In this document: positions 21,740 through 47,046 of the stretch, in pieces
Position numbering within the stretch: position 1 is the stretch's first letter
Layout of the letters: every line of letters begins with the position of its first letter
Virus record (IMG/VR): IMGVR_UViG_3300046167_000724
DNA length: 64,000 nucleotides
From: a virus
Lineage: Duplodnaviria; Caudoviricetes
Reading direction: 5' to 3' (one strand)
The notes under the pieces: model-generated
The model's input: the letters and a program-made list of their open reading frames with translations, nothing else
The model's database searches: none
Told to the model about the DNA's origin: nothing
Made by a program: the position numbers and the translations under genes

Positions 21740-24604
21740 ATGCCTTACGTTTCTAAAGACGACATCATGGCTTTTATCCCTGAGGGGATAACTTTACAGC
21801 AAGGTGTAGCTACAACAATAGATATTCAGCTTTACAAAGACTATTTAAATAATAATTTAAATGCAGCAGAGGCGGATTCAATTGTAGTTACCTTATATAA
21901 CTCATTTGGACAAAAAACATATCAATACGCAAATCCAGTAGTTCCTGGTCAAACCGATAGACTTAATATTGGTGTACCGGCGTCTGCAACTCAAGGTACT
22001 ATCTCTTTTGATATTACAGCAACACAGGCCGCTAATTTAGCATCTGGTAGTATTTACGCTCAAGTAACAATTACATATTCAAATTATTATCCATCTGCAA
22101 AAACTTATGTTTTACCTAGGTTACTACTTGGTGATAATAATAATTCTACATTACCAGGTGGTGAAGGTTCAGATAATTCTGGCACATCAGGTTCAGGTAC
22201 TTCTGGCAACAGTCCAGTATCTTCGATGGATATGGTTAAATATGCAATTAGTCATGTAGATGGTTCACAGCCATCGATTAAATCAGTTTCCGTAAACAAT
22301 ACTGACCCCGCGTTAGTTACAGAAATTACATTTTATAATTTAGACCAAAATAATCATAGAAACGTTTTATTAGAAAACTTTTTAGAGAATAGAATAGCAA
22401 ATAGTGTTTTAGGTACTATCACGATAGTTGATAAAGACAATCCACTAAATTATTCTGTTTATAGTATTTCTAGCTATTCTAGGATTAATGCTGAATCTGG
22501 AGGTGGTGACGACAATGATAATGACTATACAAAAATTGTAGTTGCATATGAAGATAATTCATATTCACCAGTTGATTCACCGTATGCGTATGAAGTAGGT
22601 CAATCTATTGGATACATGTTAGATGCATTTGGCGGTGCTTCACAAACAGGTTCAACTCAAGGTGCTCAAGGTGCTAATGGCGTCGACGGTGCTCAAGGTG
22701 CTACAGGTGCTCAAGGTGCTAATGGTGTCGATGGCGCTCAAGGTGCTAATGGTGTCGACGGTGCTCAAGGTGCTCAAGGTGCTAACGGTGTCGACGGTGC
22801 TCAAGGTGCTAACGGTGTCGATGGTGCTCAAGGTGCTAATGGTGTCGATGGCGCTCAAGGCGCTAATGGCGTCGATGGCGCTCAAGGTGCTAACGGTGCT
22901 AACGGTGTCGACGGTGCTCAAGGTGCTAACGGTGTCGACGGTGCTCAAGGTGCTAACGGTGTCGATGGTGCTCAAGGTGCTAATGGTGTCGATGGTGCTC
23001 AAGGTGCTAATGGTGTCGATGGCGCTCAAGGTGCTAATGGCGTCGATGGTGCTCAAGGTGCTAACGGTGTCGACGGTGCTCAAGGTGCTAACGGTGTCGA
23101 TGGCGCTCAAGGTGCTAATGGCGTCGATGGTGCTCAAGGTGCTAACGGTGTCGACGGTGCTCAAGGTGCTAACGGTGTCGACGGTGCTCAAGGTGCTAAC
23201 GGTGTCGATGGTGCTCAAGGTGCTAATGGTGTCGATGGCGCTCAAGGTGCTCAAGGAGCCGAAGGTACTCCAGGTACTGGTATTACTTTCCAAGGCTCTG
23301 TTGCAAATGTAGCAGGTTTACCTACTACTGGAAATGACCAAGGAGACGCTTATTTAAATCAAGATAATGATTCTTTATGGATTTGGGATGGTACTCAATG
23401 GGTTGACGGTGGTTCAATTCAAGGTCCAGCCGGTCCAACCGGTTTACAAGGAGCTCAGGGTGCTGATGGTGCCGCAGCTTCTGCAGGTGCTCAAGGTTCT
23501 CAAGGTGCTGATGGCGCTCAAGGTGCTGATGGCGCTCAAGGTGCTGATGGTGCTCAAGGTGCTAATGGTGCTCAAGGCCCAATAGGTTTACAAGGAATTG
23601 AAGGTGCACAAGGCGCTACAGGTTCTCAAGGTGCTGATGGTGCTCAAGGTGCTAATGGTGCTCAAGGCCCAATAGGTTTACAAGGAATTGAAGGTGCTCA
23701 AGGTGCCGATGGTGCTCAAGGTGCTGATGGCGCTCAAGGTGCTAATGGTGCTCAAGGCCCAATAGGTTTACAAGGAATTGAAGGTGCACAAGGTGCTGCT
23801 GGTGTTAACGGAGCTCAAGGAGATGCTGGTGTAAATGGGGCACAAGGTGCTGCTGGTGTAAATGGAGCACAAGGTGCAAACGGAGAAACAGGCCCTGCAG
23901 GTCCACAAGGAGCACAAGGTGATGCTGGTGTTAATGGAGCGCAAGGTGCTATAGGTTTACAAGGACCTTCTGGTGCTGAAGGTGCACAAGGTGCTGCTGG
24001 TACTAATGGCGTCGAAGGTGCTCAAGGTGCTGCTGGTATTGGTGTTCCTTCAGGTGGTACATCAGGTCAAGTAATTACTAAAGTTGATGCTAATCCTTAT
24101 AATACTGTATGGGCTGACCCAACTGGAGCCTCTGGTGCAGGTTACACAAAATACTTATTAAGACTAAACTATAATTCATCAAACCTTTTAATTGGCGGTA
24201 CGTCATCACATTCGTTCCAGTCAAAAGCAGGTTATGAAACTACAGGCGCTGGAATAAACTCAGCAATTGCAGGTACTAATAGCCAACCGGGTAGCATATC
24301 TGTTGCATTTACTGAAAGCAATCCACCTATCTCTATTTTAGTTATGGCATGGGATCCTGCAACTAGTGAATATAAAGTGCACCACTATGATAAAGATGCG
24401 GCAAACATAGTTGTTAATACAGCGTCTGGTGATTTTACAGCAATAGGCAATGACCAGTACGAACCTAACTTCTTTAGCTCGTTTACAACAGGTATTACTT
24501 TAGATACTAGACAAGATTTCATGAAGTTTGGTAATTCAGCATCTGCTGGCGGTTTCCCACCGGCAATAAAAAATCCTCACGTTTACGTGATATTTGTATT
24601 CTAA
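21740..24604 (+). CDS. Collagen-like virion fibre protein 1 (GAQGANGVD repeats)
   Basis: Globular N-terminal domain, two Gly-X-Y tracts separated by a Trp-rich knob, globular C-terminal domain. Confidence 0.9.
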   Translation: MPYVSKDDIMAFIPEGITLQQGVATTIDIQLYKDYLNNNLNAAEADSIVVTLYNSFGQKTYQYANPVVPGQTDRLNIGVPASATQGTISFDITATQAANLASGSIYAQVTITYSNYYPSAKTYVLPRLLLGDNNNSTLPGGEGSDNSGTSGSGTSGNSPVSSMDMVKYAISHVDGSQPSIKSVSVNNTDPALVTEITFYNLDQNNHRNVLLENFLENRIANSVLGTITIVDKDNPLNYSVYSISSYSRINAESGGGDDNDNDYTKIVVAYEDNSYSPVDSPYAYEVGQSIGYMLDAFGGASQTGSTQGAQGANGVDGAQGATGAQGANGVDGAQGANGVDGAQGAQGANGVDGAQGANGVDGAQGANGVDGAQGANGVDGAQGANGANGVDGAQGANGVDGAQGANGVDGAQGANGVDGAQGANGVDGAQGANGVDGAQGANGVDGAQGANGVDGAQGANGVDGAQGANGVDGAQGANGVDGAQGANGVDGAQGANGVDGAQGAQGAEGTPGTGITFQGSVANVAGLPTTGNDQGDAYLNQDNDSLWIWDGTQWVDGGSIQGPAGPTGLQGAQGADGAAASAGAQGSQGADGAQGADGAQGADGAQGANGAQGPIGLQGIEGAQGATGSQGADGAQGANGAQGPIGLQGIEGAQGADGAQGADGAQGANGAQGPIGLQGIEGAQGAAGVNGAQGDAGVNGAQGAAGVNGAQGANGETGPAGPQGAQGDAGVNGAQGAIGLQGPSGAEGAQGAAGTNGVEGAQGAAGIGVPSGGTSGQVITKVDANPYNTVWADPTGASGAGYTKYLLRLNYNSSNLLIGGTSSHSFQSKAGYETTGAGINSAIAGTNSQPGSISVAFTESNPPISILVMAWDPATSEYKVHHYDKDAANIVVNTASGDFTAIGNDQYEPNFFSSFTTGITLDTRQDFMKFGNSASAGGFPPAIKNPHVYVIFVF
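22661..23236 (+). repeat. 27-bp coding tandem repeat (about 20 units, GAQGANGVD)
   Basis: ggtgctcaaggtgctaaYggYgtcgaY units differing almost only at synonymous sites. Confidence 0.95.
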
Positions 24605-29099: not shown

Positions 29100-30290
29100 A
29101 TGAATATAGGAATAACAATAGGGCTTCAATCTGAAAACGAAAGTATGTGGATTAATGGTATTAAATTAAATGCCATACTTTTAGCAAATGCCCTTATGCA
29201 AATAGATGGACATAACGTTTATATTATAGACACATCAAATAAAGTAGAGGATTTAACTAAAGTACAATGGGACTATAAAAAGTTTCCAGTTAAAAGACTA
29301 TCAGATGTTTTTAAAACAACAGATATAATGATTACTTTAGGTACATCTTTTCCTGCAAGTATTATAGAAAAGTTTAAAGCACAAGACCCTAATAAAAGAG
29401 TTGTAAAATATATGTGCGGTAATTCATATGTTATCGAAATGGAACGTGCAATTTTTAAGACTGGCAATGATTTAGGTGAAGCACCTTGGGATCCAGGCGC
29501 TGATGAGATTTGGTATGTACCACAACAAGGTTATCAAAACGAACATTATTATAAAACTATATTTAGGACTGATAAAGTTTATCCAGTTCCCTTTGTATGG
29601 GACCCAATGTTTTTAATTCAAGAGCTTGCTAGATATAAAAAAGCAAATAGAAAGCTACCTATATACAACCCAAGTAGACCACAGGCTGAAAAGAGAATTT
29701 GTACATTTGAACCTAATATGAATGTTGTTAAATATGCAATGATTCCAATTCTAGCAGTAGAACAAATTTATAGAAGAGGTGTTGAGTTTAATAAAATGTA
29801 TATTGCTAGTGGTAAGAAGCTACTTAAGAACTCTTACTTTATGTCTCAGATTAAATACCTAGACGTTGTTAAAGATAATCCATCAGCACCTAAGTTACAA
29901 TTTACTTCAAGATATCCAGTTGCTCATTATTTAGCAGAGACTACTGATATTGTATTAGCACATCAATGGGAAAACCCATTAAACTACTCATACTTAGACG
30001 TTATGTTTATGGGATACCCATTAGTACATAATGCTGATATGATTAAAGATGCTGGTTACTACTACCCAGACTTTAATATTGAATCAGCAGCTGACCAACT
30101 TGAATACGCTCTAAAACACCATGATGAAAATAGAGAAGAGATGGCAGCTAAAAATAGAGAAGTTCTAAAAAGATATACAATTCAAAATAAAGGTATGATT
30201 GAACTGTATGATAAGATGATTGATAATTTATATGATGGCGAACATGAAATGTCATATGAATATGATTGGAAAACAAACCTGTATAAATAA
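29100..30290 (+). CDS. Putative GT-B glycosyltransferase (DUF2827-like)
   Basis: IGITI..SMWINGI, VPFVWDP, FEPNMNVVK, HQWENPLNYSY..GYPLVHN..GYYYPDF motifs recalled for DUF2827. Confidence 0.65.
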   Translation: MNIGITIGLQSENESMWINGIKLNAILLANALMQIDGHNVYIIDTSNKVEDLTKVQWDYKKFPVKRLSDVFKTTDIMITLGTSFPASIIEKFKAQDPNKRVVKYMCGNSYVIEMERAIFKTGNDLGEAPWDPGADEIWYVPQQGYQNEHYYKTIFRTDKVYPVPFVWDPMFLIQELARYKKANRKLPIYNPSRPQAEKRICTFEPNMNVVKYAMIPILAVEQIYRRGVEFNKMYIASGKKLLKNSYFMSQIKYLDVVKDNPSAPKLQFTSRYPVAHYLAETTDIVLAHQWENPLNYSYLDVMFMGYPLVHNADMIKDAGYYYPDFNIESAADQLEYALKHHDENREEMAAKNREVLKRYTIQNKGMIELYDKMIDNLYDGEHEMSYEYDWKTNLYK

Positions 30291-32110
30291 TGAATGATTT
30301 TTTAAATAGGCTTAATGGATTTGCTAATACATTTAAGCCTCAAGATACTCCATCGCTAGAGGAAGTTAAAAAACAACAAGCTGCTAGATTAGCTAAGATT
30401 GAAAATCATAATAGAATTCAGTCTGAGAATAAAATTAAGGAAGAACAGCTAGAGGTTGAAAGACATGTAGAGCTTCAAAGACTTGAAGAGATTGAAGCTA
30501 ATAGACCTCGTATTACTTTTGTAATGACAGCATGTGGCCGTCCTGATCTAATGGAAAAAACATTAGATTCATTCTTTAAGTTTAATACAGCACCGATTGA
30601 TAGATTCATTATTACAGAGGATTCAGCAGACCCTGAAATATTTATAGAATGTAAAAAGTTAAACGATAAAAAGTACAACAATAAATTAGAGTTTATATTT
30701 AATGAAAAGAAACTAGGTCAAGCTAGGTCAATTGATTTAGCTTACTCTATGATCGATACTGAATATATTTTTCATTGTGAAGAGGATTGGGAGTTCTATG
30801 GTAATGAATTTATAGAACAATCTATTTCAATTCTTGAAGCGGATGAAACGGTATTACAAGCTTGGATTAGACCAAAGTCGGATGGTATTTTAAATGATAT
30901 TTCAAAAGATGTATACCATATAAGTGGTATTGGAGTTAGAGATGTACTTCCAAAATCATTTATGGTTAAGGGTGGTGCACCCGGCGGCAAAGACTTAATC
31001 ATTAGAGATTATATGGGCTTTAGCTGGAATCCAGGTGTTAAAAGACTTTCTGATTATAAACTATTAAAAAATGGTTATTCAGGAATTAGAGAAGAACATC
31101 TAATCGATACTTATTATAGGTCGCATTCTAAAGGATTTAAAGTTGTTAGTTTATCAGAAAATGATGAACAGGGTTTTGTAAAACATATTGGCTGGGACAG
31201 AAGGGCTGATGATCCGGTTCATAAAGAAAATGAAAAAGTGGATTTAGAAGAAGCAATGTTAGCCGCAAGAGCTAAAAGAGAAGCTGATAAAAAAGCAGTA
31301 GAAGATAAGTTAGCCGCTGAAGAAGCAGCAAGACAGCAATCTAAAAATGAAGTTAAGAAGCCTAAAGTTTCTGTAGTTATGCAGGTTTATCTAGGTGACT
31401 ATCCAGGTTCTAGAACAGATTCGGTTCTTAAGTTTCATAGAGCTGTAAAATCATTTTTAGGTCAATCATACGAAAACTCAGAATTAATTATAGCATCTGA
31501 TGGTTGTAAAATTACATGGCAACATTACGAACAATTCTATGCGGACAATAAAAAAATTAAGTTTGTTTATGTAGATAAGAAAGGTCTTCCAAATATGTAT
31601 GAAGAAAGACTTGAAGGTTATAAGTATTATAGAGGAGTTCCAAGACAAGCTGGATGTTCTATAGCATCAGGTGAACTTATTACGTATATGGACTCAGATG
31701 ATTTTTTACATCCTAAGTTTTTATATGAAATAGTCTATCAATATAATAACGCACATGAAGATGCAGTGTGGTTCTTAAATAATACTTGGTATGATCATGT
31801 AAATATTATGACACAAGCCATTTCAAATTTAAATATATTAGATCCATATAACCAAGATAGAATTATTAATATACCTTTCTTAAAGGCCGACTTTATACCT
31901 TCAAAGGTAAAAGCAGGTCTTGTAGTTAATACGCCATGGCTACTAACACATAAAGCCGATATTAAAACTAGATGGAAAGATACTTTAGGTACAACTAGTG
32001 AAGATGTTGATTTTGGTAGAAGGCTTAGAGAAGATTATAAAGGATTAGGTTCTCAGTTTAGTGCACCTACATATATTAGATGCCATTATACTGGACTTTG
32101 GGACGTTTAA
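30290..32110 (+). CDS. Tandem two-domain GT-A (GT2-like) glycosyltransferase
   Basis: Domain 1 ITFVMTACGRPDL..YIFHCEEDW; domain 2 VSVVM..QSYENSELIIASDG..ITYMDSDD. Confidence 0.85.
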   Translation: MNDFLNRLNGFANTFKPQDTPSLEEVKKQQAARLAKIENHNRIQSENKIKEEQLEVERHVELQRLEEIEANRPRITFVMTACGRPDLMEKTLDSFFKFNTAPIDRFIITEDSADPEIFIECKKLNDKKYNNKLEFIFNEKKLGQARSIDLAYSMIDTEYIFHCEEDWEFYGNEFIEQSISILEADETVLQAWIRPKSDGILNDISKDVYHISGIGVRDVLPKSFMVKGGAPGGKDLIIRDYMGFSWNPGVKRLSDYKLLKNGYSGIREEHLIDTYYRSHSKGFKVVSLSENDEQGFVKHIGWDRRADDPVHKENEKVDLEEAMLAARAKREADKKAVEDKLAAEEAARQQSKNEVKKPKVSVVMQVYLGDYPGSRTDSVLKFHRAVKSFLGQSYENSELIIASDGCKITWQHYEQFYADNKKIKFVYVDKKGLPNMYEERLEGYKYYRGVPRQAGCSIASGELITYMDSDDFLHPKFLYEIVYQYNNAHEDAVWFLNNTWYDHVNIMTQAISNLNILDPYNQDRIINIPFLKADFIPSKVKAGLVVNTPWLLTHKADIKTRWKDTLGTTSEDVDFGRRLREDYKGLGSQFSAPTYIRCHYTGLWDV

Positions 32111-33273
32111 TCGAAAAACGGTTTATATCCATACTTGAGACAAAAGTCATTAAACTTTCTTTTGACAGAGGGCCTTACGGCTCTCTTCTCATTTTCAAGG
32201 CCTTCTAACCCGTCATGGTCTCTTTCATTTACCTTACCAGTTGAAGGTGTATATGATATATCAAGGTCTTTAGACTTTAAGAAATCAAACAACTCTTTTT
32301 CTTGGTCTTCTATTCTATAAATAAAAGCAGGTTGTTTAGCTGTAATTAATCTATCCCATCTTAGAATAGAGTTAATGGCCATTTCAATTTTATTAGTAGA
32401 CTTAATTACACCGCCTTTCTTAATTCTGAAATTTATAGATTCTTCTTTTACATTCTCAGTAAATATAATAGATGCGATAGAAGTTAATGGGTCTCTAACG
32501 TTATAGATTATTAGCTCTGGTTCTAGATTATTTTGAAAATCATTTAAGTAAATCCAAGGGCCTTTATCAACTGCAAGTTGCCATGCAACAATACCGTCTT
32601 TACCAACTTCTTCATGTCCTACATCTAAACCCCAGGATTGAAGTAATTTAGCTGTAAATCCAGTTCCAGTTCTTGGGTGGCCTAATCCTAAAATCTTAAC
32701 CTTTCTTTTTATAGAACTCATAAGAACCTTTTCCATATGCTTGATATAGTTATCAAGTAGTGCATCGCGTTTTTCCTCTTCAGTATGATACCAATTCCAA
32801 GCAATTGAACCTTGTATGCTTTCTATTTCTTTTTGGACGTTTTTACTTTCTTCATCAATTTTTTCAATATGGTCAAAATATTCTTCAGATAGTTCTATTT
32901 CTAATTTAATAGCAACTGTAATTAAAAGAGCCATGTTATCATCTTCATTAGCCTGATTAGCTAATTCGTATAATTCTGCATATTGAGCTTGTTGTTTAAT
33001 AGATAAGTCTTTGTCCATTCTATCGGGATGGCACTTAACTACAATTTTTCTAAACAGCTTTTTAAATAAAGGGTCTCTGTTTGGACTTTCTTTTTCTTCC
33101 AGCTCTTTGTCATCGGCTAGCTCTTTAACATTTTTGCTTTCAAAAAGATCTTGACGTTTTTTAGCAGCTAATGCACTACTAAATTCAGAATTAATTTCAG
33201 ATGCCATTTCACGGAGGTACTCCAAGTCTTCTAATGCCTGACTCGTACTTCTTAAGCATTCTTTTAAACTCAA
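32107..33273 (-). CDS. J-domain-like region fused to a sulfotransferase-like (P-loop) domain
   Basis: KKLFRKIVVKCHPDR (HPD motif); ILGLGHPRTGTGF (5'-PSB-like loop) and VRDPLTSIAS (3'-PB-like). Confidence 0.7.
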   Translation of the reverse strand: MSLKECLRSTSQALEDLEYLREMASEINSEFSSALAAKKRQDLFESKNVKELADDKELEEKESPNRDPLFKKLFRKIVVKCHPDRMDKDLSIKQQAQYAELYELANQANEDDNMALLITVAIKLEIELSEEYFDHIEKIDEESKNVQKEIESIQGSIAWNWYHTEEEKRDALLDNYIKHMEKVLMSSIKRKVKILGLGHPRTGTGFTAKLLQSWGLDVGHEEVGKDGIVAWQLAVDKGPWIYLNDFQNNLEPELIIYNVRDPLTSIASIIFTENVKEESINFRIKKGGVIKSTNKIEMAINSILRWDRLITAKQPAFIYRIEDQEKELFDFLKSKDLDISYTPSTGKVNERDHDGLEGLENEKRAVRPSVKRKFNDFCLKYGYKPFFD

Positions 33274-34284: not shown

Positions 34285-37200
34285 ATGGCATTACCAATTA
34301 TTAGAACAACCGGGTCGTCGGGTACTTCAGGTCTTAATGGGACTTCAGGTTATGACGGAACGCATGGTTCTTCAGGCACAGCCGGAACATCAGGAACAGC
34401 TGGAACTTCAGGTTCATCAGGTTCTTCGGGTTCATCAGGAACTGCAGGTACATCAGGGAGCTCAGGCACTTCGGGTACAGCAGGAACTGACGGAACTTCT
34501 GGAAGCTCAGGCTCTTCAGGTTCTTCAGGCACATCAGGTACAGCTGGTACTTCAGGTACAGCTGGTACTTCAGGTTCGTCGGGTTCATCAGGTTCATCAG
34601 GAACTGATGGTACAGACGGGTCTTCAGGTTCATCGGGTACAGATGGTACAGATGGTACGGACGGTTCGTCCGGTTCATCGGGTACGGACGGTACAGACGG
34701 TACAGACGGTTCTTCAGGTTCATCAGGAACTTCAGGAACTTCAGGAACGGACGGTACTTCGGGTACTTCAGGTACTTCAGGTACGGACGGTACGGACGGT
34801 ACTTCAGGTTTTTCAGGTACTTCAGGCTTTGATGGTTCATCAGGTACTTCAGGTACTTCAGGTTCATCAGGTACAGACGGTACAGACGGAACTTCAGGTT
34901 CTTCAGGTACAGATGGTACTTCAGGTACTTCAGGTTCTTCAGGTACAGATGGTACTTCAGGAACAGATGGTACAGATGGTACAGACGGTTCATCAGGTTC
35001 ATCAGGTTCATCAGGTACAGATGGTACAGATGGTTCATCGGGTTCTTCAGGTACAGATGGTACTTCAGGTTCTTCAGGTACAGATGGTACAGATGGTTCA
35101 TCGGGTTCATCGGGTTCTTCAGGTACAGATGGTACTTCAGGAACAGATGGTACAGACGGTTCATCAGGTTCTTCAGGTACAGATGGTACAGATGGTTCAT
35201 CGGGTTCTTCAGGTACAGATGGTACTTCAGGTTCTTCAGGTACAGATGGTACAGATGGTTCATCGGGTTCATCGGGTTCTTCAGGTACAGATGGTACTTC
35301 AGGAACAGATGGTACAGACGGTTCATCAGGTACAGATGGTACAGATGGTACAGATGGTTCATCGGGTTCATCGGGTTCATCGGGTTCTTCAGGTACAGAT
35401 GGTACTTCAGGAACAGATGGTACAGACGGTTCTTCAGGTTCATCGGGTACAGACGGTACAGACGGTACATCAGGTACAGATGGTACTTCAGGTACGGATG
35501 GAACAGATGGTACAGATGGTTCATCAGGTTCATCAGGTTCTTCGGGTTCTTCAGGTACAGACGGTACTTCAGGTACTTCAGGTACAGATGGTACAGATGG
35601 TTCATCGGGTTCTTCAGGTACAGATGGTACTTCAGGAACAGATGGTACAGACGGTTCATCAGGTTCATCAGGTACAGATGGTACAGATGGTTCATCGGGT
35701 TCTTCAGGTACAGATGGTACTTCAGGTTCTTCAGGTACAGATGGTACAGATGGTTCATCGGGTTCATCGGGTTCTTCAGGTACAGATGGTACTTCAGGAA
35801 CAGATGGTACAGACGGTTCATCAGGTTCATCGGGTACAGACGGTACAGACGGTACATCAGGTACAGATGGTACTTCAGGAACAGATGGTACAGATGGTTC
35901 ATCGGGTTCATCGGGTTCTTCGGGTTCTTCAGGTACAGACGGTACTTCGGGTACAGATGGTTCTTCAGGTTCTTCAGGTTCTTCAGGTACAGATGGTACT
36001 TCAGGTACTTCAGGTACTTCAGGAACAGATGGTTCTTCAGGTACAGATGGTACAGACGGTTCATCGGGTTCTTCAGGTTCATCGGGTACATCAGGTACTT
36101 CGGGAACAGATGGTACAGATGGTACAGATGGTACTTCGGGTTCTTCGGGTACTTCAGGTACAGACGGTACTTCAGGTTCATCAGGTACGGACGGTACTTC
36201 TGGTACAGACGGTACTTCTGGTACAGACGGTACTGACGGTACAGACGGTACTTCAGGTTTTTCAGGGACTTCAGGCTTTGATGGTTCTTCAGGAACTTCA
36301 GGTACTGACGGTACAGACGGTACAGATGGTTCATCAGGTTCATCAGGTTCATCAGGTACGTCGGGTACATCGGGTACTTCAGGAACAGATGGTACATCAG
36401 GAACAGATGGCACATCAGGTTCATCAGGTTCATCAGGTTCATCGGGTACTTCAGGTACAGATGGTACAGATGGTTCATCGGGTTCTTCAGGTACAGATGG
36501 TACTTCAGGTTCTTCAGGTACAGATGGAACTTCAGGTACGTCGGGTACGTCGGGTACTTCAGGTACAGATGGTACAGACGGTTCTTCAGGTTCATCAGGT
36601 ACAGATGGTACAGATGGTACTTCAGGAACGGATGGTACATCAGGTTCGTCAGGTACTTCAGGTACAGATGGAACTTCAGGTACGGATGGTACGTCAGGTT
36701 CATCAGGTTCATCAGGTTCTTCAGGAACAGACGGAACTTCGGGCACTGATGGTACAGATGGTTCATCAGGTTCATCGGGTACTTCAGGTACTTCAGGTAC
36801 TGATGGTACAGATGGTTCTTCGGGTTCTTCAGGTTCTTCAGGTACTTCAGGAACAGATGGTTCTTCAGGTTCTTCAGGTACTTCAGGTACTTCAGGAACA
36901 GATGGTTCTTCGGGTTCTTCGGGTTCTTCAGGCTCATCGGGTACTTCAGGTACGGACGGTTCTTCGGGATCTTCAGGTACAGACGGTACTTCGGGTTCTT
37001 CAGGTACTTCAGGAACAGATGGTTCTTCAGGTACAGATGGTACAAATGGTTCATCAGGTTCTTCAGGAACATCAGGTACATCGGGTACATCAGGTACAGA
37101 TGGTACGTCAGGAACGGATGGTACATCAGGTTCTTCAGGTACTTCAGGTACTTCAGGTACTGATGGTACAAGTGGTTCTTCAGGTTCAAGTGGTACAGAT

Positions 37201-40008
37201 GGTACTTCAGGAACGGATGGTTCATCAGGTTCATCAGGTTCATCGGGTACTTCAGGTACTTCAGGTACTTCAGGTACAGATGGTACAGATGGTACAGATG
37301 GTTCATCAGGTTCATCAGGAACTTCAGGTACTTCAGGAACAGATGGAACAGACGGTTCATCAGGTTCGTCAGGTTCATCAGGTTCATCAGGTACTTCAGG
37401 TACTTCAGGAACAGATGGAACAGACGGTTCATCAGGTTCATCGGGTTCATCGGGTACTTCAGGTACGGATGGAACAGATGGTACAGATGGTTCATCAGGT
37501 TCATCAGGTTCATCAGGTTCATCAGGAACATCAGGAACATCAGGTTCATCAGGTGTTGATGGTAGAAATATACAACAAAGTACACAAATTGATCCAAATG
37601 CACCTTTAATTCAAGGTGAATTCGGCGACCAATTATATTATGGTATAGACGGTAGTATTTGGTCATGGGATCCAAATTCAAATTCATGGATTCAAGTTGG
37701 TAACTTAACAGGTGCTATAGGTGCTCAAGGTGCTTCTGGAACTTCAGGTTCTTCTGGAACTTCTGGAACTTCAGGCTCTTCAGGCTCTTCAGGCTCTTCA
37801 GGTTCTTCAGGAACTTCAGGAACTTCAGGAACTTCAGGCTTAGATGGTGCTAAATCAGGTAACTATGGCGATCCAAATGGTCAAATTTCAGGTTCATTCG
37901 TTGGACAGGTTTATTTTGATGCAGGTGGTGCTGTGTTTATTTGGAATGGTTCAAATTGGAATCCAAGTAATAATTTAACAGGTGCTCAAGGTGCTCAAGG
38001 TGTTACTGGTGCTAAAGGCCAAAAAGGTCAAACTGGCGCTAAAGGAGATACGGGTGCTCAAGGTGCTCAAGGGCCTCAGGGTATTCAAGGTATCAAGGGT
38101 CAAATTGGTGACACAGGTGCTAAAGGTGACACGGGTGCTCAAGGTGCTCAAGGACCACAAGGTGTAGCGGGTCTACAGGGTATTGAAGGTATCAAAGGTC
38201 AAATTGGTGCTAAAGGAGATACGGGTGCTCAAGGTGCAACTGGACCTCAAGGTCTTGAAGGTGCTAAAGGCCAAAAAGGTCAAACTGGTGCTACAGGTGC
38301 TACAGGTGCTCAAGGTGCTCAAGGTGCTAAGGGTGACACAGGTGCTCAAGGTGCTCAAGGTGCTCAAGGGCCTCAGGGTATTCAAGGTATCAAGGGTCAA
38401 ACTGGTGCTACAGGTGCTAAAGGTGACACGGGTGCTCAAGGTGTAGCTGGAACTTCTGGAACTTCTGGAACTTCTGGTACTTCTGGTACTTCAGGCTCAT
38501 CAGGTTCATCAGGTTCTTCAGGTGCTAAAGGCGCTACAGGTGCTCAAGGTCCACAAGGTATTACTGGTCAAACAGGTGCTAAAGGTGACACTGGTTCACA
38601 AGGTGCTCAAGGTGCAACAGGTGCTCAAGGCGCTCAAGGTGCTCAAGGAGCTCATGGTACGTCAGGTTCATCTGGACATGATGGTGCTAAATCAGGTAAC
38701 TATGGTGATCCAAACGGTCAAATTGTAGGTTCATTTATTGGACAGCTTTATATTGATACAACTGGTCTAGTCTTTGAATGGACTGGTGCTACTTGGAATC
38801 AGGTAAATGATTTAACTGGACCACAAGGTGCAACTGGTGCTAAGGGTGCTACTGGTAATCAAGGTGCTCAAGGACCACAAGGTAATATCGGTAATCAAGG
38901 TGCTCAAGGTGCTACAGGTGCTCAAGGTGCTACAGGTGCTCAAGGTGCTACAGGTGCTCAAGGTGCTGTTGGTGCTACAGGTGCTCAAGGTGCTGTTGGT
39001 GCTCAAGGGCCTCAAGGTATTCAAGGTATCAAAGGTCAAATAGGTACTACGGGTCAAAAAGGTGCAACTGGTGCTACTGGTGCTCAAGGTGCTGTTGGTG
39101 CTACGGGTGCTCAAGGTGCAACTGGACCCCAAGGTCTTGAAGGTGCTAAAGGCCAAAAAGGTCAAACAGGTGCTACAGGTGCTCAAGGTGCTACGGGTGC
39201 TACAGGTGCTCAAGGTGCTGTTGGTGCTCAAGGTGCAACTGGTGCTACAGGTGCTCAAGGTGCTACAGGTGCTCAAGGTGCAACTGGTGCTGCGGGTGCT
39301 AAAGGTGCAACTGGTGCTACAGGTGCTCAAGGTGCTGTTGGTGCTCAAGGTGCTACAGGTGCTAAAGGTCAAAAAGGTCAAACTGGTAATACAGGTGCGC
39401 AGGGTGCTATAGGTACTACGGGTGCACAAGGTGCTACTGGTCCAACACTTTCAGTTGTTAATAACTCTAACAATAGAATTATTACAGCAACTGGTGGTTC
39501 TACCGTAAACGGTGAATCTGGCCTAACGTTTGATGGTCAAACAATGTCTTTCCAAGGTGGTAAGATAATGTTAGCCAATACTGCAAGCGTTGGCGCAACA
39601 TACGGCGCACCATATCACTTTAACATTGATGCAAATACAATCATACCAGATGCTGAAATGGGAGCTCCGCTACCAATGATGTATGATATGGTAAATGGTG
39701 GTGTTGGTTATCAAGCTTCTTCTTTAAGATTTAAGGAGAATGTTGTAAATCTAGACTTTGACGCATCTGCGTTCTTATCACTAGATGCAAGAACATTCGA
39801 CTGGAAAGATTCTGGAAGAAGTGATATCGGTTTCATAGCAGAAGAAGTTGCTGCATTTGACGAGAGACTAGCAGTCTCTGACGGTCAAGGTGGTTTCATC
39901 TCGATGCATTATGATAAAATGACAGTGTACCTATTCAAGGTGGTTAAAGATCTTCATGCGAAAGTAGAAGAACTAGAAGCTAAAATAAATACACTAGAAA
40001 ACAAGTAA
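34285..40008 (+). CDS. Giant collagen-like fibre protein 2 with C-terminal peptidase S74 intramolecular chaperone
   Basis: ~360 G-(T/S)-(S/D) triplets, then Lys-containing Gly-X-Y tracts with knobs; C-terminal [31 protein letters not shown] + coiled coil. Confidence 0.9.
34312..37563 (+). repeat. Low-complexity 9-bp coding repeats (GTS/GSS/GTD)
   Basis: ggtacttca / ggttcatca / ggtacagat units with larger nested duplications. Confidence 0.95.
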
Positions 40009-40019
40009 ACAATGAATGA

Positions 40020-40046
40020 GGGGCCAGTTTCGGCTGGCCCTAATTT
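40020..40046 (+). terminator. Hairpin/terminator after fibre 2
   Basis: GGGCCAG-TTTCGG-CTGGCCC stem; weak T tract. Confidence 0.6.
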
Positions 40047-40072
40047 CTAATAAAAAAGAAACAATTAAAGAA

Positions 40073-43000
40073 ATGGCAAGAATTTCATTAAAGGACCTAG
40101 CTGCCTTACAATCTGCCTTCAAACTTGCAAGTGTTGATGCAGCTTCATTAAAAAGCCGCTTCAATAAAGATGCAAAGAAGACAAGTGGTAACACAGCAGC
40201 TCCTGGTACATATGGCGCAAATGAGACGTATGTGCAAATTAACGAGCTAGGACCGGTTGTATCAGATCTTGTTGATGGTGTTAAAGCTCTAGAAACAGAG
40301 ATAGCAGACATCCACAGATTCTTAGAAGGACAATTAGGTTTAGATGCAAATAACATGAGTCTACCACCACTTATTTATGCTGAAAAGTCAAATGGTGAGG
40401 TAGTAGTAGTTTTTGATGCTGATGGTAATTTACCTTCAATTTTAAAGACAATCCAACCAGAAGATGGTACATTAACTATATCTGGCGATTTATCAGTTTC
40501 TGGTACTCTTACAGGTCCAGGTGCTGACGGTCTTAATGTAGGTGATATTACATTAGGCGCAAACAATCAAATTTCATTCGGTGATGTTACAAATACATTT
40601 ATCGGTGCAAATACAAACACACCAGAAGATTTAGAAATCCATGCAGATGGTAATTTATATTTAAGACCAGATGGTGCAGTATATGTTGGTTCTTCACCAG
40701 TTATTAGTGCATCAGGTAGATGGATTGGTACTTCTGATGGTATTAAAGGTCAAAAAGGTCAAACTGGTGCTACTGGTTCTACAGGAGCAACTGGTCCTCA
40801 AGGTGCTCAAGGTGCTACTGGAGCAACTGGTGCTCAAGGACCTCAAGGTATCAAAGGTGATACAGGTGCTAAAGGTAATCAAGGTGCTCAAGGTGCTGTT
40901 GGTGCTAGAGGTGCTGCGGGTGCTAATGGTACATCAGGTTCATCAGGTACTTCAGGTACATCAGGTGTAAATGGTGCTCAAGGACCTCAAGGTGTTAAAG
41001 GTAATCCAGGTGCAAATGGTACTTCAGGTACATCAGGTGTAAATGGTGCTCAAGGACCTCAAGGTCAAAAAGGCCAAACTGGTAACCAAGGTGCTCAAGG
41101 TCCACAGGGACCTCAAGGTATCAAAGGTGATACAGGTGCTAAAGGTAATCAAGGTGCTGTTGGTGCTACTGGTGCTACTGGTGCTCAAGGTGCTGCGGGT
41201 GCTAAAGGTCAAACTGGTGCTACAGGTTTACAAGGCGCTCAAGGTGCTCAAGGTGCTCAAGGTGCTAAAGGTAATGCGGGTAATAATGGTACTTCGGGTA
41301 CTTCAGGTACATCAGGTGTAAATGGTGCTCAAGGTTATCAAGGACCTAAAGGCCAAAAAGGTCAAACAGGTGCAACAGGTGGCGGTGGTGCTACAGGTGC
41401 TACAGGTTCGCAAGGTGCACAAGGTGCTCAAGGTTACCAAGGACCAATTGGTGCTAAAGGTAATGCGGGTAATAATGGTACTTCAGGTACTTCAGGTACA
41501 TCAGGTGTAAATGGTGCTCAAGGTTATCAAGGTGTCAAAGGTGCTACAGGTGCTAAGGGTAACACTGGTAATACTGGCCCTATCGGGCCTCAAGGTGCTC
41601 AAGGTGCTCAAGGTTACCAAGGTAATCAAGGTGCTCAAGGTGCTGCGGGTGTTGATGGTATTTCAGGTACATCAGGTGTTGATGGCGCTACAGGTGCTAT
41701 GGGTGCACAAGGACCACAAGGACCTCAAGGTCAAAAAGGCCAAACTGGTAATCAAGGTGCTCAAGGTGCTGTTGGTGCTCAAGGTGCTGTTGGTGCTAAA
41801 GGCCAAAAAGGTCAAACAGGTGCAACAGGTGGCGGTGGTGCTACAGGTGCTACAGGTGCACAAGGTGCTCAAGGTGCTCAAGGTTATCAAGGACCACAAG
41901 GTATCAAAGGCCAAACTGGTAATCAAGGTGCTCAAGGTGCTGTTGGTGCTCAAGGTGCTGCAGGTGCTAAAGGCCAAAAAGGTCAAACAGGTAATACTGG
42001 ACCAGGCGGTGGTACAGGTGCTACAGGTGCTCAAGGTGCTCAAGGTGCTCAAGGTTATCAAGGACCACAAGGTATCAAAGGTCAAACAGGTGCTACAGGT
42101 GCTCAAGGTGCTGTTGGTGCTCAAGGTTATCAAGGACCTAAAGGCCAGAAAGGTCAAACAGGTAATACTGGACCAGGTGGTGGTACAGGTGCTACAGGTG
42201 CTCAAGGTGCTCAAGGTGCTCAAGGTTACCAAGGTATCAAAGGTGCTACAGGTGCTAAAGGTAATGTAGGTAATACTGGTGCTCAAGGGCCACAGGGTCC
42301 TGGTGGACCAGGTGGTGGTACAGGTGCTACAGGTGCTCAAGGTGCTCAAGGTGCTCAAGGTTACCAAGGTATCAAAGGTGCTACAGGTGCTAAAGGTAAT
42401 GTAGGTAATACTGGTGCTCAAGGGCCACAGGGTCCTGGTGGACCAGGTGGTGGTACAGGTGCTACAGGTGCTCAAGGTGCTCAAGGTGCTCAAGGTGCTA
42501 CAGGTGTTAAAGGTGCTACAGGTGCTACAGGTGCTCAAGGTGCTCAAGGTTATCAAGGATCTAAAGGCCAAAAAGGCCAAAAAGGTCAAACAGGTGCAAC
42601 AGGTGGCGGTGGTGCTACAGGTGCTGTAGGTGCTCAAGGTGCTCAAGGTGCTCAAGGTTATCAAGGTATCAAAGGTGCTACAGGTGCTAAAGGTAATACT
42701 GGTAATAATGGTGCTCAAGGGCCACAGGGTCCTGGTGGACCAGGTGGTGGTAGGTGCTCAAGGTGCTCAAGGTGCTCAAGGTGCTCAAGGTGCTCAAGGT
42801 GCTCAAGGTGCTACAGGTGTTAAAGGTCAAACAGGTGCTAAAGGTAATACTGGTAATACTGGACCAGGTGGTTCAACTGGACCTCAAGGTGCTAAAGGTG
42901 CTACGGGTGCAGTATACGGTTCAATGTCATGGCCGGTTAACGAAGTTGGATACGGCGGCGGCGGTGATAAACTTTCAGTTACTAACACTGGACCAATTGC

Positions 43001-43382
43001 AGGTACTATTAATCCAGGTGTAAATCCAGGTACAGGAGACCTTCAAGAGGTAGGATTTACTTCTACTGTAAATGGTCTATTCATGGTTAACTATAACGTA
43101 ACATTTAGGTCTGATTATGCAAACAGATCATGTTTTGGTCTAGTTGCTAAATCAGGTGACCCAAGGGGTACAAATTCGACTATTTACGGATCGGGTAACG
43201 TACAATACTTTAGGTATAACACGTATGGTCAGTTTAGTACTCTTTCAGCTTCATTTATTATGGATGTTGCAGTGGGTCAGAATATCTGGTTTGAAACAGT
43301 ACTACTTAACGGCGGCGGTCCATGGGCAGTTGTTTCTTTAGGTGGTGCTCCCGGTTCAGTAACAATTACAAGAATTGCATAA
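40073..43382 (+). CDS. Collagen-like fibre protein 3 with C1q/BclA-like C-terminal head; frameshift at ~42752
   Basis: Start MARISL at 40073; long Lys-rich Gly-X-Y tract; collagen frame resumes in ORF 42630-43382, ending [35 protein letters not shown]. Confidence 0.85.
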
Positions 43383-43401: not shown

Positions 43402-43590
43402 ATGACAACAGTTAATTATTACATTGAAGACTTAGCTACTGGTTTGGTAGTTATGAGAATTGGCGAGATGAAGCAATTTATTTCAAGTGAAGATGCTAAA
43501 GTATTCACATCTTATGATGCGGCACTTACACACATCGACACTCTAGCTAATGGTGATTATAGAATCTTTTCTAGAATCGTTAAAGCATAA
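43402..43590 (+). CDS. Small hypothetical protein
   Basis: 62-aa ORF between fibre 3 and a terminator. Confidence 0.65.
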   Translation: MTTVNYYIEDLATGLVVMRIGEMKQFISSEDAKVFTSYDAALTHIDTLANGDYRIFSRIVKA

Positions 43591-43614: not shown

Positions 43615-43641
43615 AAGGGCCCCTCATTGAGGGGCCTTTTT
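43615..43641 (+). terminator. Rho-independent terminator
   Basis: AAGGGCCCCTCA/TGAGGGGCCTT stem plus T tract. Confidence 0.85.
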
Positions 43642-43694: not shown

Positions 43695-44279
43695 ATGAAT
43701 ACAATGTTCGAACAACCTCAAAATGATCCACAACAGTATTATTATTTTGAAAAAGGTTTTACAAAACAACAATTAGATAAAATTTATAAAGACGTTGCTA
43801 AATTGCCAATTCAAAAAGCAACTACATTTTCTGATGATAATGACACAAGTGTTAGGTCATCTTCTGTTAAATGGATTCCACAAACAAAAGAGTGGTCATG
43901 GTTATATGAAATTTTAATGAATTATGCTGAAGTTGCAAATCAAGAACTTTGGAACTTTGATTTAATATCAGCACCTGAACTTATTCAATATACTGAATAT
44001 TATGATGTAGAGGGTGGACATTATGATTGGCATCAAGATATTGGACCTGGAATTGGTTCTACTCGAAAAGTATCAATTACAGTACAGCTTTCAGATGCAG
44101 ATGAATATGAAGGTGGTGACCTTGAATTTTATTATGGTGGTCAATCATATGTTGATGCACCCCGCGGCGCCGGTGTTGTAGTACTTTTCCCAAGTTATTT
44201 AATGCATAGAGTTTCTAAAGTAACTAAAGGTACTCGCAGATCTTTTGTTCTTTGGGTTGGTGGCCAACACTACAAATAA
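43695..44279 (+). CDS. 2OG-Fe(II) oxygenase (prolyl-4-hydroxylase-like)
   Basis: YDWHQD (HxD), RKVSITVQLS, YEGGDLEF, FPSYLMHRV (His), GTRRS (Arg). Confidence 0.9.
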   Translation: MNTMFEQPQNDPQQYYYFEKGFTKQQLDKIYKDVAKLPIQKATTFSDDNDTSVRSSSVKWIPQTKEWSWLYEILMNYAEVANQELWNFDLISAPELIQYTEYYDVEGGHYDWHQDIGPGIGSTRKVSITVQLSDADEYEGGDLEFYYGGQSYVDAPRGAGVVVLFPSYLMHRVSKVTKGTRRSFVLWVGGQHYK

Positions 44280-45287
44280 ATGAAAGTATTAATTTATATA
44301 GGTTACCAGGCAAAACAACTTGATTACAATGATTTTATTCAAGGTAATCATATTGGTGGTACTGAAATAGTTTCTTTAAAGTTAGCGGAAACATTAGTAA
44401 AGTATGGTATCGAAGCTTATTTTGGTGGTCAAATAAATAATGGTTTTCATAATGGTGTAGAATGGATTGATATATCACAATGTGGTTCTAAACACTTTGA
44501 TATGGTAATTTCATCAAGCTATTTACATTTTATAGATACAATTGATTCTAAATATAAGTTTTTGTGGCTACATAACACAGATTGGTATCCATGGAAAGAT
44601 GGTGAAGATATTTACAATATAGATTATATTAACCGATGGGACATGGACGGTTTAATTACATTAACACAATGGCATAAGGATTTTATGTTAAATAACTTCG
44701 GTATTAAAAAAGAGGTTCATGTAATTGGTAATTCAATTGACAGAAAAACGTTTAATAAAAAAGATAAGATTAGAGGTAGTTTTATTTACTCCTCAGCAGC
44801 TGAGCGTGGATTGTATAGATTACTACGTATGTGGCCTAAAGTTTTAGCAGTGATGCCACATGCAACTTTAAACGTGTTCTGTCCAGGGTACAGTAAGCCA
44901 AATGTTGAAATTTGGCCTGAAGGTGTAACTTACCACGGCACTGTTAGTCAAGATGTTTTACATGATTGGCAAATGAAGTCTGAATATTGGTTATACCCAA
45001 CAAGTTATGAAGAAACTTATTGTGTTACGGCTCTTGAAATGCAGTATGCTGGTGTTATTCCAATTACAACACCCGTTGCAGCATTAGGTGAAGTTGTCGG
45101 TGATAGAGGTGTTTTATTAAACCCTAATGAAACAGACGATGCGTTTGTAGATATAATAAAAGAATTAGAGCGTTCACCTGAACGTAAACAAAGATTAAGA
45201 GAAAAGGGTCATGAATGGGCTAAGCAACAGTCATGGAATATTAGAATTTTAGAATGGTTACAATTAATTAGGAAAAATGCAAATTGA
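44280..45287 (+). CDS. GT-B glycosyltransferase (GT4-like)
   Basis: IGGTEI, YSSAAERGL, YPTSYEETYCVTALEMQYAG (Ex7E-type motif). Confidence 0.88.
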   Translation: MKVLIYIGYQAKQLDYNDFIQGNHIGGTEIVSLKLAETLVKYGIEAYFGGQINNGFHNGVEWIDISQCGSKHFDMVISSSYLHFIDTIDSKYKFLWLHNTDWYPWKDGEDIYNIDYINRWDMDGLITLTQWHKDFMLNNFGIKKEVHVIGNSIDRKTFNKKDKIRGSFIYSSAAERGLYRLLRMWPKVLAVMPHATLNVFCPGYSKPNVEIWPEGVTYHGTVSQDVLHDWQMKSEYWLYPTSYEETYCVTALEMQYAGVIPITTPVAALGEVVGDRGVLLNPNETDDAFVDIIKELERSPERKQRLREKGHEWAKQQSWNIRILEWLQLIRKNAN

Positions 45288-46596
45288 TCATATTTATATT
45301 ATAAATCTCCGCAGTAGTGTTGAAAGTATTGTTGATAGATTAAATGACTTACAAATGCCAAGTGGTGTTCCGTATACTATAATTAATGGTATCAATGGTC
45401 GTAATTTAGTTACAGGTAAAACTCAACTTGATTGGGAATGGTCAGCTGCTGAATGGTGGAAAATAGAAGGTCATACAAATGAATGGTGGTCTAGGGATAT
45501 AAATGCAGCTGAAATAGGTTGTACATTATCACATACTATTGCATGGAATCAAGCAATTTTAGATAAAAGCAAGAACGCATTAATTCTTGAAGAAGATTTT
45601 AATACTAAAGGTAACGGTTGGCCAGCTCAAGAAATCTGGGACCAAATTCCTAGTGATTATGATTTATTTTATGTAGGTCGCCGTAGAGTTCCAGGGTATG
45701 AAGATATACCGTATTCTAAAGATATTGTAATATCAAATTATGTTTACAATTCACATGCATATGTGATTTCAGCAACTGGTATTAAAAAAGCACTCGCAGT
45801 CAATCCATCAATTGACATTATACCCATGGACGAATTAATTCCAGGACTTGCACGTATTCACCCAAGACCCGAAGTTAATGAAAGATTTAAAGCAGACAAT
45901 TTTTCAATATATGCGTTCAATTGCCCAAATTTACATTATGTTACACAGACAACAATTATGCAAAATTCAATATCAGAAGACTTTCCAATACTAAACACAA
46001 GTAATTGGGAAGCATGGACTCAAAGGTATGTAGCACCTGTAATGTTACAGAGGGATTATGAACTAATGACAGATGACTTGGGTCCTAATATTATAGAGTT
46101 CCCATTATTTACTGACACATTCTGTGAAGAGTTAATTCAATTAGCAGAATCTAAAGGTGAGTGGACAATGGGTCGTCATGAGTTTTATCCAACAAATGAC
46201 ATGTTAATGGAAACATTAGGCATGAAAGATATTTACACAAGAGTAATTCGTGAGTATGTTGCACCATTGGCAACTTGGTATTATACCTTAGAAGGTCAAG
46301 GTTGGGATGTTGTAGAAGATGAGACTTTTATTATACGTTACAGACCAGACCGTCAGGGCCAACTTTCAGTCCACCATGATTATTCATCTTACACAATTGG
46401 TGTAAAACTAAATGATGAGTTTGAAGGCGGTGGTACATATTTTCCTAAATATGGTGTAAACGCAATACCTAAACGTAATGGTAACGCATTTATGCACCCT
46501 GGAATGATTACCCATAGACATGGTGGTCGCCCAGTTTATTCAGGTACTCGCTATATTGCAGTATCATTTATCAAAAACACATCAATTTTAAAATAG
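45277..46596 (+). CDS. GT25 glycosyltransferase fused to a PLOD-type (lysyl hydroxylase-like) 2OG-Fe(II) oxygenase
   Basis: N-terminal IYIINL..EIGCTLSH..W..ALILEEDF..DLFYVGRR; C-terminal FPLFT..FCEELI..FIIRYRPDRQ..HHD.S.YT..LN..EGGG..HPG..THRH..GTRYIAVSF. Confidence 0.88.
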   Translation: MQIDHIYIINLRSSVESIVDRLNDLQMPSGVPYTIINGINGRNLVTGKTQLDWEWSAAEWWKIEGHTNEWWSRDINAAEIGCTLSHTIAWNQAILDKSKNALILEEDFNTKGNGWPAQEIWDQIPSDYDLFYVGRRRVPGYEDIPYSKDIVISNYVYNSHAYVISATGIKKALAVNPSIDIIPMDELIPGLARIHPRPEVNERFKADNFSIYAFNCPNLHYVTQTTIMQNSISEDFPILNTSNWEAWTQRYVAPVMLQRDYELMTDDLGPNIIEFPLFTDTFCEELIQLAESKGEWTMGRHEFYPTNDMLMETLGMKDIYTRVIREYVAPLATWYYTLEGQGWDVVEDETFIIRYRPDRQGQLSVHHDYSSYTIGVKLNDEFEGGGTYFPKYGVNAIPKRNGNAFMHPGMITHRHGGRPVYSGTRYIAVSFIKNTSILK

Positions 46597-46597
46597 A

Positions 46598-47023
46598 ATG
46601 AAGAAAGAAATTAAACTACAATCAAGTCAAGGTGATGACGGTCAATTAGTAAGTCCTGGACTTCCAGATGGTGTTAAGAATTACTTAATTGATATAGACG
46701 GTACAGTCACCGATGATGTACCTAATGAGGAACCAGAAAGAATGGCGGTTGTACAGCCATTTCCAGATGCTTTAGAAATCCTAAATAAATGGTACGATGA
46801 AGGTCATGTAATCACATTCTTTACATCAAGGACTGAAGAAGTACGTGATATCACAGAAACATGGTTAGACAAACATGGTTTTAAATATCATGGTCTTTTA
46901 ATGGGTAAACCACGTGGTGGAAATTACCATTGGGTTGACAATCATGTTGTAAAAGCTACTAGATATGTTGATAAATGGACAGATTTAGTAGAACGAGAAA
47001 AAACTATTGAAGTTTTTGAATAA
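46598..47023 (+). CDS. HAD-superfamily phosphatase
   Basis: LIDIDGT motif I, FFTSR motif II, MGKP. Confidence 0.85.
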   Translation: MKKEIKLQSSQGDDGQLVSPGLPDGVKNYLIDIDGTVTDDVPNEEPERMAVVQPFPDALEILNKWYDEGHVITFFTSRTEEVRDITETWLDKHGFKYHGLLMGKPRGGNYHWVDNHVVKATRYVDKWTDLVEREKTIEVFE

Positions 47024-47046
47024 AAGAGGCCCTGAACGGGCCTCTT
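47024..47046 (+). terminator. Terminator hairpin
   Basis: AAGAGGCCC-TGAAC-GGGCCTCTT. Confidence 0.75.

Follow-up and report, generated by a model that had tools for sequence, protein, structure and literature searches.

We describe a gene at positions 45277..46596 (+) of a 64,000-nucleotide stretch of tailed-phage DNA (Caudoviricetes; IMG/VR virus record IMGVR_UViG_3300046167_000724), hereafter the window. Its 439-amino-acid (aa) product joins an N-terminal glycosyltransferase family 25 (GT25) domain to a C-terminal lysyl hydroxylase (LH) domain of the PLOD type. Most probably, this protein is a cytoplasmic bifunctional enzyme that modifies collagen lysines in a large marine myophage. It fits best as a compact phage form of the L230/PLOD-COLGALT system of collagen-lysine modification and is an orthologue of neither animal enzyme. 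Hydroxylysine glycosylation of collagen has been treated as an animal trait, with mimivirus as the one viral exception; the relationships described here suggest that phage fibres probably carry animal-style, sugar-decorated hydroxylysine as well.

Both domains resemble the collagen-lysine enzymes of animals and mimivirus far beyond chance. An original prediction, made from the window's letters without database searches, had read the C terminus as a PLOD-like catalytic domain and the N terminus as GT25. All the motifs it quoted are found in the 439-aa open reading frame (ORF), namely FPLFTDTFCEELI, FIIRYRPDRQGQLSVHHDYSSYTIGVKLN, EGGG, HPGMITHRH, GTRYIAVSF, EIGCTLSHTIAW and LILEED, and both assignments are upheld by Pfam, solved-structure and profile matches and by an AlphaFold2 model. 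The COLGALT-like GT25 catalytic domain spans 45277..45951 (+; residues ~1-225, placed by alignment mapping, 36 relatives and Foldseek), and the PLOD/L230-type LH domain spans 46000..46581 (+; residues ~242-435, placed by structure and profile matches and residue mapping). In a sequence search of all solved structures, residues 247-433 matched the LH domains of mimivirus L230 (E = 6.4e-22) and, more strongly, human LH3 (E = 1.6e-29), and residues 2-233 matched the C-terminal catalytic domain of COLGALT1 (E ~1e-16). A family profile built from an alignment of 36 full-length relatives bore out the kinship with PLOD, L230 and COLGALT1 that the original prediction expected from such comparisons (LH3, E = 6.5e-41; L230, 1e-41; COLGALT1, 4e-37). 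Pfam GT25 (PF01755) was recognized at residues 4-108, scoring 43 bits where the cut-off is 24, and the C-terminal half gave weak generic 2-oxoglutarate (2OG) oxygenase matches. NCBIfam had no match for the fusion protein, and in Pfam the PLOD glycosyltransferase (GT) family GT_PLOD (PF25342) was not matched. The GT25 domain begins at residue 2, with no N-terminal GT domain before it.

The GT25 half is closer to collagen galactosyltransferases than to their bacterial namesakes. Profile positions 1-217 cover the COLGALT1 catalytic domain match (131 bits), whereas the structure of a bacterial GT25 beta-1,4-galactosyltransferase (8xlz) scored 33.6 bits (E = 1.7e-7) and mimivirus R655 reached E = 1.6e-8. 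Because the profile fits COLGALT1 far better than either R655 or the bacterial enzyme, the GT25 half classifies as collagen-galactosyltransferase-like, not as lipo-oligosaccharide (LOS)-type. The original prediction had counted clustering with lipopolysaccharide (LPS) GT25 enzymes as evidence against itself; the preference we observe runs the other way. By the same kind of comparison, the LH domain belongs specifically with PLOD and L230 and not with PHD enzymes.

Alignment indicates that all metal, 2OG and catalytic-base residues are conserved in both domains. With residue roles taken from the L230 structure paper (PMC5802723), the Fe triad of the LH domain is H366, D368 and H415, aligned to L230 H825, D827 and H877. 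The 2OG ligands are Y355 and R425 (L230 Y814 and R887). These five residues are at least 90% conserved among the 36 relatives. For the GT25 domain, with roles from the COLGALT1 cryo-EM paper (PMC12987934), the Mn ligand D107 corresponds to D437, D127-Y-D129 to the essential DxD at 461-463, and D185 and E186 to the catalytic base D522 and the hydroxylysine-amine anchor E523. Further equivalences are C82 with C412, G41 with G377 and Y157 with Y494. The family shows no variation at D107, D185 and E186, and the mapped GT25 residues as a whole are invariant or near-invariant. The L230 LH domain forms a tail-to-tail homodimer in which Leu L873 sits inside an aromatic pocket (PMC5802723). I411 occupies the L873 position in the phage protein, where family members have Ile or Val, and Y372 corresponds to L230 Y831; a homodimer prediction for two copies of residues 236-439 scored 0.30 against a mark of 0.42, which speaks neither for nor against a dimer.

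The predicted fold agrees with these assignments. AlphaFold2 modelled the 439-aa protein with a mean predicted local distance difference test (pLDDT) score of 88. When this model was searched with Foldseek, the LH half proved to be a double-stranded beta-helix fold with LH-specific shape, superposing on the L230 LH crystal structures with TM scores (by target) of 0.87-0.89 and a root-mean-square deviation (rmsd) of 2.0-2.5 Å (E ~1e-17), and the GT25 half matched COLGALT1 (E ~1e-15). Residues 226-234, the sole segment with pLDDT below 50, match the position of the COLGALT1 lid loop, which is disordered without substrate and ordered on substrate binding (PMC12987934). Model residues 2-433 also align to the part of PLOD1-3 that comprises the accessory (AC) and LH domains (PLOD residues ~285-727). 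We rejected the GT25 half as an active counterpart of the AC domain: the rmsd is ~20 Å and the profile stops short of AC. This overlap is generic GT-A likeness, and the literature places AC with the N-terminal domain of COLGALT1 instead of its GT25 domain (PMC12003778, PMC11897130).

The fusion belongs to a widespread and architecturally varied family. Relatives in more than 300 clusters at 90% identity span the full length, 125 representatives at 50% identity have E <1e-30, and at least 291 IMG/VR viral contigs encode relatives. In a census of the top 150 representatives, LH alone (42) was the commonest architecture, followed by GT25-LH (35), GT25-PLOD_GT-LH (33), GT4-GT25-LH (23), PLOD_GT-LH (5) and LH-GT25 (4); the remaining 8 were one-off or two-off arrangements. 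These layouts indicate that GT25 and LH have been fused repeatedly and in several orders. The fusion noted in the original prediction is confirmed and is not unique: it belongs to a widespread family, and giant-virus proteins are a precedent for GT and LH domains in one chain. One GT25-PLOD_GT-LH protein (899 aa) comes from giant-virus-like surroundings that include HSP70, and the best match in BFVD is an 889-aa Megavirus procollagen-lysine dioxygenase. The long giant-virus type received 99% support as a clade in a quick tree of LH domains. The rest of the tree, a half with loose support, contains the compact phage type together with the triple fusions and many LH proteins that stand alone. 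According to this tree, fusion or fission of the family 4 glycosyltransferase (GT4) has happened several times.

The cassette is present in seawater metagenomes from more than 10 studies. In a phage collection, a search for near-identical DNA gave no match, and a protein search gave only distant LH-only matches in cyanophages and one roseophage. A single-protein scan of cellular genomes, which detects close relatives only, returned no relative, and the nearest virus record (G001), only 41% complete, had no match. A 598-aa metagenomic relative (P0134) carries a Peptidase_C39 (bacteriocin-processing) domain ahead of GT25-LH, a layout that hints at an exported peptide or protein as substrate in some lineages.

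The two domains might not serve the same substrate. GT25 is named for LPS and LOS enzymes, relatives of the phage protein are annotated as 'GR25 family glycosyltransferase involved in LPS biosynthesis', and a pelagimyophage study reads glycosyltransferases near the tail-fibre genes of marine myophages as modifiers of host LPS and O-chains (PMC7029224). The LH domain could hydroxylate fibre lysines while the GT25 domain glycosylates another target (such as host LOS or another protein) or has no catalytic role and serves as a scaffold, in the manner of CERCAM or the PLOD AC domain, and the COLGALT1 acceptor-cleft residues W495 and Y561 are not conserved in the phage GT25. We regard this division of labour as unlikely. 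The profile fits COLGALT1 some 30 orders of magnitude better than the bacterial GT25 galactosyltransferase, and the catalytic base, Mn ligand, DxD and hydroxylysine-amine Glu are invariant across the family, whereas inactivity of the CERCAM type is tied to loss of such motifs (PMC3244457). Furthermore, repeated independent fusions of GT25 and LH in different orders argue for a single pathway.

Candidate substrates lie immediately upstream of the cassette that contains the fusion gene. Collagen-like fibre 2 (34285..40008, +; 1907 aa) has its Lys tracts in the C-terminal third, and collagen-like fibre 3 (40016..43382, +) has a frame break near 42750 in the window. The original prediction had placed every Lys of the triplet tracts of these two fibres in the Y position. 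Scoring Lys in tracts of at least five Gly-X-Y triplets, we found exactly this: 24 in Y and none in X for fibre 2, 34 and none for fibre 3 (40016-42823), and 3 and none for its frame-shifted continuation (42630-43382), so that 61 of 61 tract lysines occupy Y. Pro within the tracts of fibres 2 and 3 is almost solely in X. A further collagen-like gene, fibre 1 (21740-24604), lies 20 kb from the cassette and has 137 triplets, none with Lys.

The same placement holds among relatives, and it is not specific to Lys. Across 61 unique collagen ORFs (9368 triplets) from relatives' loci, Lys occurs 995 times in Y and 15 times in X. Arg has nearly the same bias (403 in Y versus 33 in X), and Pro shows the reverse (205 versus 3584). 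The placement of Lys in a PLOD substrate context stands as first described, but because of the Arg bias it is weak evidence on its own. The Y bias is compatible with targeting without proving it.

Collagen-like genes also accompany the enzyme in other viruses. Of 80 viral loci of relatives that were fetched, 47 have a collagen-like ORF no more than 10 kb away, in most cases directly upstream. We checked five loci without one: three carry collagen genes at a greater distance on the same contig, and two are fragments whose completeness is below 45%. In a minority of related loci, the sequence available does lack a collagen gene, and bacterial and viral 2OG protein hydroxylases with non-collagen substrates are known, with PDB 4iw3 and 5v7y among our fold matches. 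The enzyme might then modify host proteins or other phage proteins, for instance in a takeover function like that of bacterial prolyl 4-hydroxylase (P4H) on EF-Tu. We find this improbable. Against it stand the PLOD/L230-like, not PHD-like, LH domain, the dominance of collagen genes among the neighbours across divergent phages, and the fragmentary state of both contigs that remained without collagen on checking.

Several observations tell against modification of fibre collagen by the phage protein. The Lys bias toward Y is shared by Arg and may reflect a triple-helix preference instead of targeting, and the collagens of some related loci (e.g., L038) contain very few lysines. The COLGALT1 acceptor cleft is only partly conserved: Y494 and T562 are kept as Y157 and T226, but W495 is replaced by N158, Y561 by T225 and K470 by Arg. 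Because of these replacements, acceptor recognition by the phage GT25 may differ from that of COLGALT1. The phage protein also lacks the PLOD GT and AC domains and the N-terminal GT domain of COLGALT1, the latter indispensable for the human enzyme (Forneris-lab structure paper, PMC12003778). Finally, the support for the phage members comes from sequence, model and gene context. Collagen-lysine modification as the function is nevertheless supported by the COLGALT-like GT25 domain, the collagen neighbours and the repeated fusions.

We infer the substrate, regiochemistry, sugar identity and effect on the fibre along the following lines. The LH domain, using Fe(II) and 2OG, would hydroxylate Y-position Lys in Gly-X-Lys-Gly on newly made, unfolded fibre chains. 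The GT25 domain, predicted to be Mn-dependent and inverting, would then transfer a hexose from a UDP-sugar onto the new hydroxyl. This sugar would probably be Gal, by analogy with COLGALT1, although Glc, as in L230, is also possible. A translationally coupled GT4 would most likely add a second, alpha-linked sugar, as a non-homologous replacement of the PLOD GT domain, and a prolyl-hydroxylase-like oxygenase probably hydroxylates the abundant X-position Pro.

These partner genes form a compact cassette with the fusion gene. Four genes lie head to tail and tightly packed: a 194-aa Fe/2OG oxygenase with a prolyl-hydroxylase-like fold (43695..44279, +), the GT4 (44280..45287, +), the GT25-LH gene and a HAD-superfamily phosphatase (46598..47023, +). 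A terminator-like hairpin stands on each side. The first (43615..43639, +; 11-bp stem with 7 GC pairs and a T-rich tail) closes the fibre 3 unit just upstream of the cassette, and the second (47024..47046, +; by hairpin prediction) lies directly 3' of the HAD stop codon. Gene calls in five of five independent assemblies include a 62-aa ORF at 43402-43590, which lies past fibre 3 and before the first hairpin and had no family match.

The GT4 gene is closely tied to the fusion gene, its end overlapping the GT25-LH start by 11 nucleotides. Its product is a GT-B, retaining-type enzyme by its Pfam matches (Glyco_trans_1_4 and Glycos_transf_1). Either as a separate gene or fused, GT4 is found in most of the 80 related loci, and the window GT4 aligns end to end with the N-terminal module of GT4-GT25-LH proteins of 790-850 aa (E = 1e-35 and 2e-38). 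Through these triple fusions, GT4 and GT25-LH appear linked in Rosetta-stone fashion. GT4 enzymes are retaining (CAZy). A retaining GT4 would suit an alpha-linked second sugar, by analogy with the animal Glc-alpha-1,2-Gal.

The 194-aa oxygenase is a candidate collagen prolyl hydroxylase. It matches Pfam 2OG-FeII_Oxy_3 (2e-13), its model has a pLDDT of 87, and Foldseek aligned it with PHD2/EGLN1, Pseudomonas P4H and PiuC at TM scores of 0.6-0.72. A search of the literature on PiuC function found nothing. The gene adjoins GT25-LH in about 50 of the 80 related loci, and its presence tracks the Pro fraction in X (Mann-Whitney p = 0.005; 22 loci with and 4 without, which are phylogenetically non-independent). 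Pro occupies 38% of X positions and 2% of Y positions in the relatives' collagens. If it is a collagen prolyl hydroxylase, this oxygenase must act on X-position Pro, unlike the animal collagen P4H. The HAD gene is a conserved downstream partner, following GT25-LH in about 20 divergent related loci (E = 1e-48 to 1e-84), and its protein has weak LNS2, acid-phosphatase B and PNKP-phosphatase matches.

The break in fibre 3 falls at window positions 42700-42800, within a (GGTGCTCAA)n stretch encoding Gly-Ala-Gln repeats. The reading frame that starts at 40016 closes at 42823 after an out-of-frame RCSRCS tail; its true continuation lies in another frame and extends to 43382. In assemblies L091, L092 and L094, fibre 3 is in one frame, with two gaps relative to the window (net 7 nucleotides). 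The frame stays open at this point in these three independent assemblies, so the break reflects a difference in assembly or between strains.

Three marine metatranscriptome libraries, drawn from two studies, contain short contigs that match parts of all four cassette genes at 97-99% identity. These contigs are consistent with expression of the cassette, although they may instead stem from DNA carry-over. That the cassette is an inactive or decaying passenger without present function, as the broken fibre 3 frame of the window might suggest, is very improbable: all four ORFs are intact, the GT25-LH catalytic residues are kept over relatives of 30-80% identity, the break is absent from three independent assemblies, and contigs from metatranscriptome libraries cover the cassette genes.

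The gene content of the window places it within a large marine myovirus: it encodes a terminase large subunit (6585-8411), a tail sheath (8469-10364) and 12 tRNA genes, at ~34% G+C. The terminase shares only 30-45% identity with its counterparts in uncultured jumbo phages and in phages of Tenacibaculum, Flavobacterium and Sphingomonas. Between the fibre genes, 29100-32110 encodes a DUF2827 protein (E = 2e-94) and a 606-aa GT2-domain protein; lying upstream of the Ser/Thr-rich fibre 2, these genes may be a second, separate fibre-glycosylation set. The sole long reverse-strand ORF of the region, 32107-33273 (-), had no Pfam or PHROGs match at the thresholds used.

Taken together, the genes suggest a broader scenario, which we offer tentatively and hold to be possible but doubtful as a whole. 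Marine tailed phages might run a complete animal-like collagen maturation in the bacterial cytoplasm, comprising prolyl and lysyl hydroxylation and a disaccharide on hydroxylysine, by means of a compact GT25-LH core to which a GT4 was recruited. Fibre stability or receptor recognition would be tuned by the modified product, and this core, in preference to the animal enzymes, may lie near the ancestral module of the giant-virus and animal PLOD/COLGALT system.

If collagen-lysine modification by this family is correct, a widespread phage family brings hydroxylysine glycosylation chemistry into bacteriophage biology. Some 'LPS-type' glycosyltransferases near marine phage fibre genes would then be reinterpreted as fibre-modifying. 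The enzymes are small and lack a signal peptide, and they are expected to express in E. coli, where they could be of use for hydroxylated, glycosylated recombinant collagens. The natural fusion proteins also bear on the evolution of the two-enzyme LH/COLGALT system, an open question of the COLGALT1 structure papers.

Published precedents for this chemistry are animal PLOD and COLGALT and mimivirus L230 and R699 (PMC5802723, PMC9546862, PMC12003778, PMC11897130), and prokaryotic collagens are generally without hydroxylysine glycosylation according to reviews (PMC8968730). In the literature we found nothing on a phage lysyl hydroxylase, a GT25-LH fusion, or hydroxylysine or its glycosylation on phage fibres. 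UniProt gives the automatic name 'procollagen-lysine 5-dioxygenase' to an uncultured phage protein.

The mimivirus protein L230 is a bifunctional collagen lysyl hydroxylase and hydroxylysine glucosyltransferase that uses UDP-Glc (PMC9546862). L230 (PDB 6ax6, 9nev) resembles the phage protein in being a viral single chain that combines a glycosyltransferase part with an LH domain of the PLOD type at its C terminus; the LH domains superpose closely and have their Fe and 2OG residues in common. L230 acts on the virus's own collagen-like proteins, and for the phage counterpart the adjoining fibres are the candidate substrate, from context. Because L230 uses UDP-Glc, the donor sugar of the phage enzyme would not follow from homology. 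The two also differ in size and setting: L230 has 895 aa and belongs to a giant virus, while the protein of this tailed phage of bacteria is half that size, lacks the PLOD GT/AC region and is paired with a GT4. Giant-virus proteins of L230's size consist of GT25, a PLOD-type GT, a spacer and LH, a layout that L230 itself may share.

Human LH3/PLOD3, like PLOD1 and PLOD2, has the same HxD...H...R layout and the HPGxxTHxH and GTRYIxVSF motifs, and the collagens adjoining the phage gene offer the X-Lys-Gly context of PLOD substrates. PLOD enzymes have three domains (GT, accessory and LH) in ~730 aa, whereas the phage protein has 439 aa, with neither the GT nor the AC domain, and lacks a signal peptide and an endoplasmic reticulum setting. 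The catalytic domain of COLGALT1 (GLT25D1) is the best solved match of residues 1-226, with the UDP and Mn residues, DxD, D522 and E523 conserved. COLGALT1 and LH3 are separate proteins that associate only as a complex; in the phage the two domains are covalently fused. The bacterial LOS/LPS galactosyltransferases of GT25 lie farther from the phage domain than COLGALT1 does (33.6 versus 131 bits). The triple fusions of uncultured viruses (for example P0121 and P0125) share their three modules, and the order of these, with window positions 44280-46596, as one polypeptide where the window has two overlapping genes.

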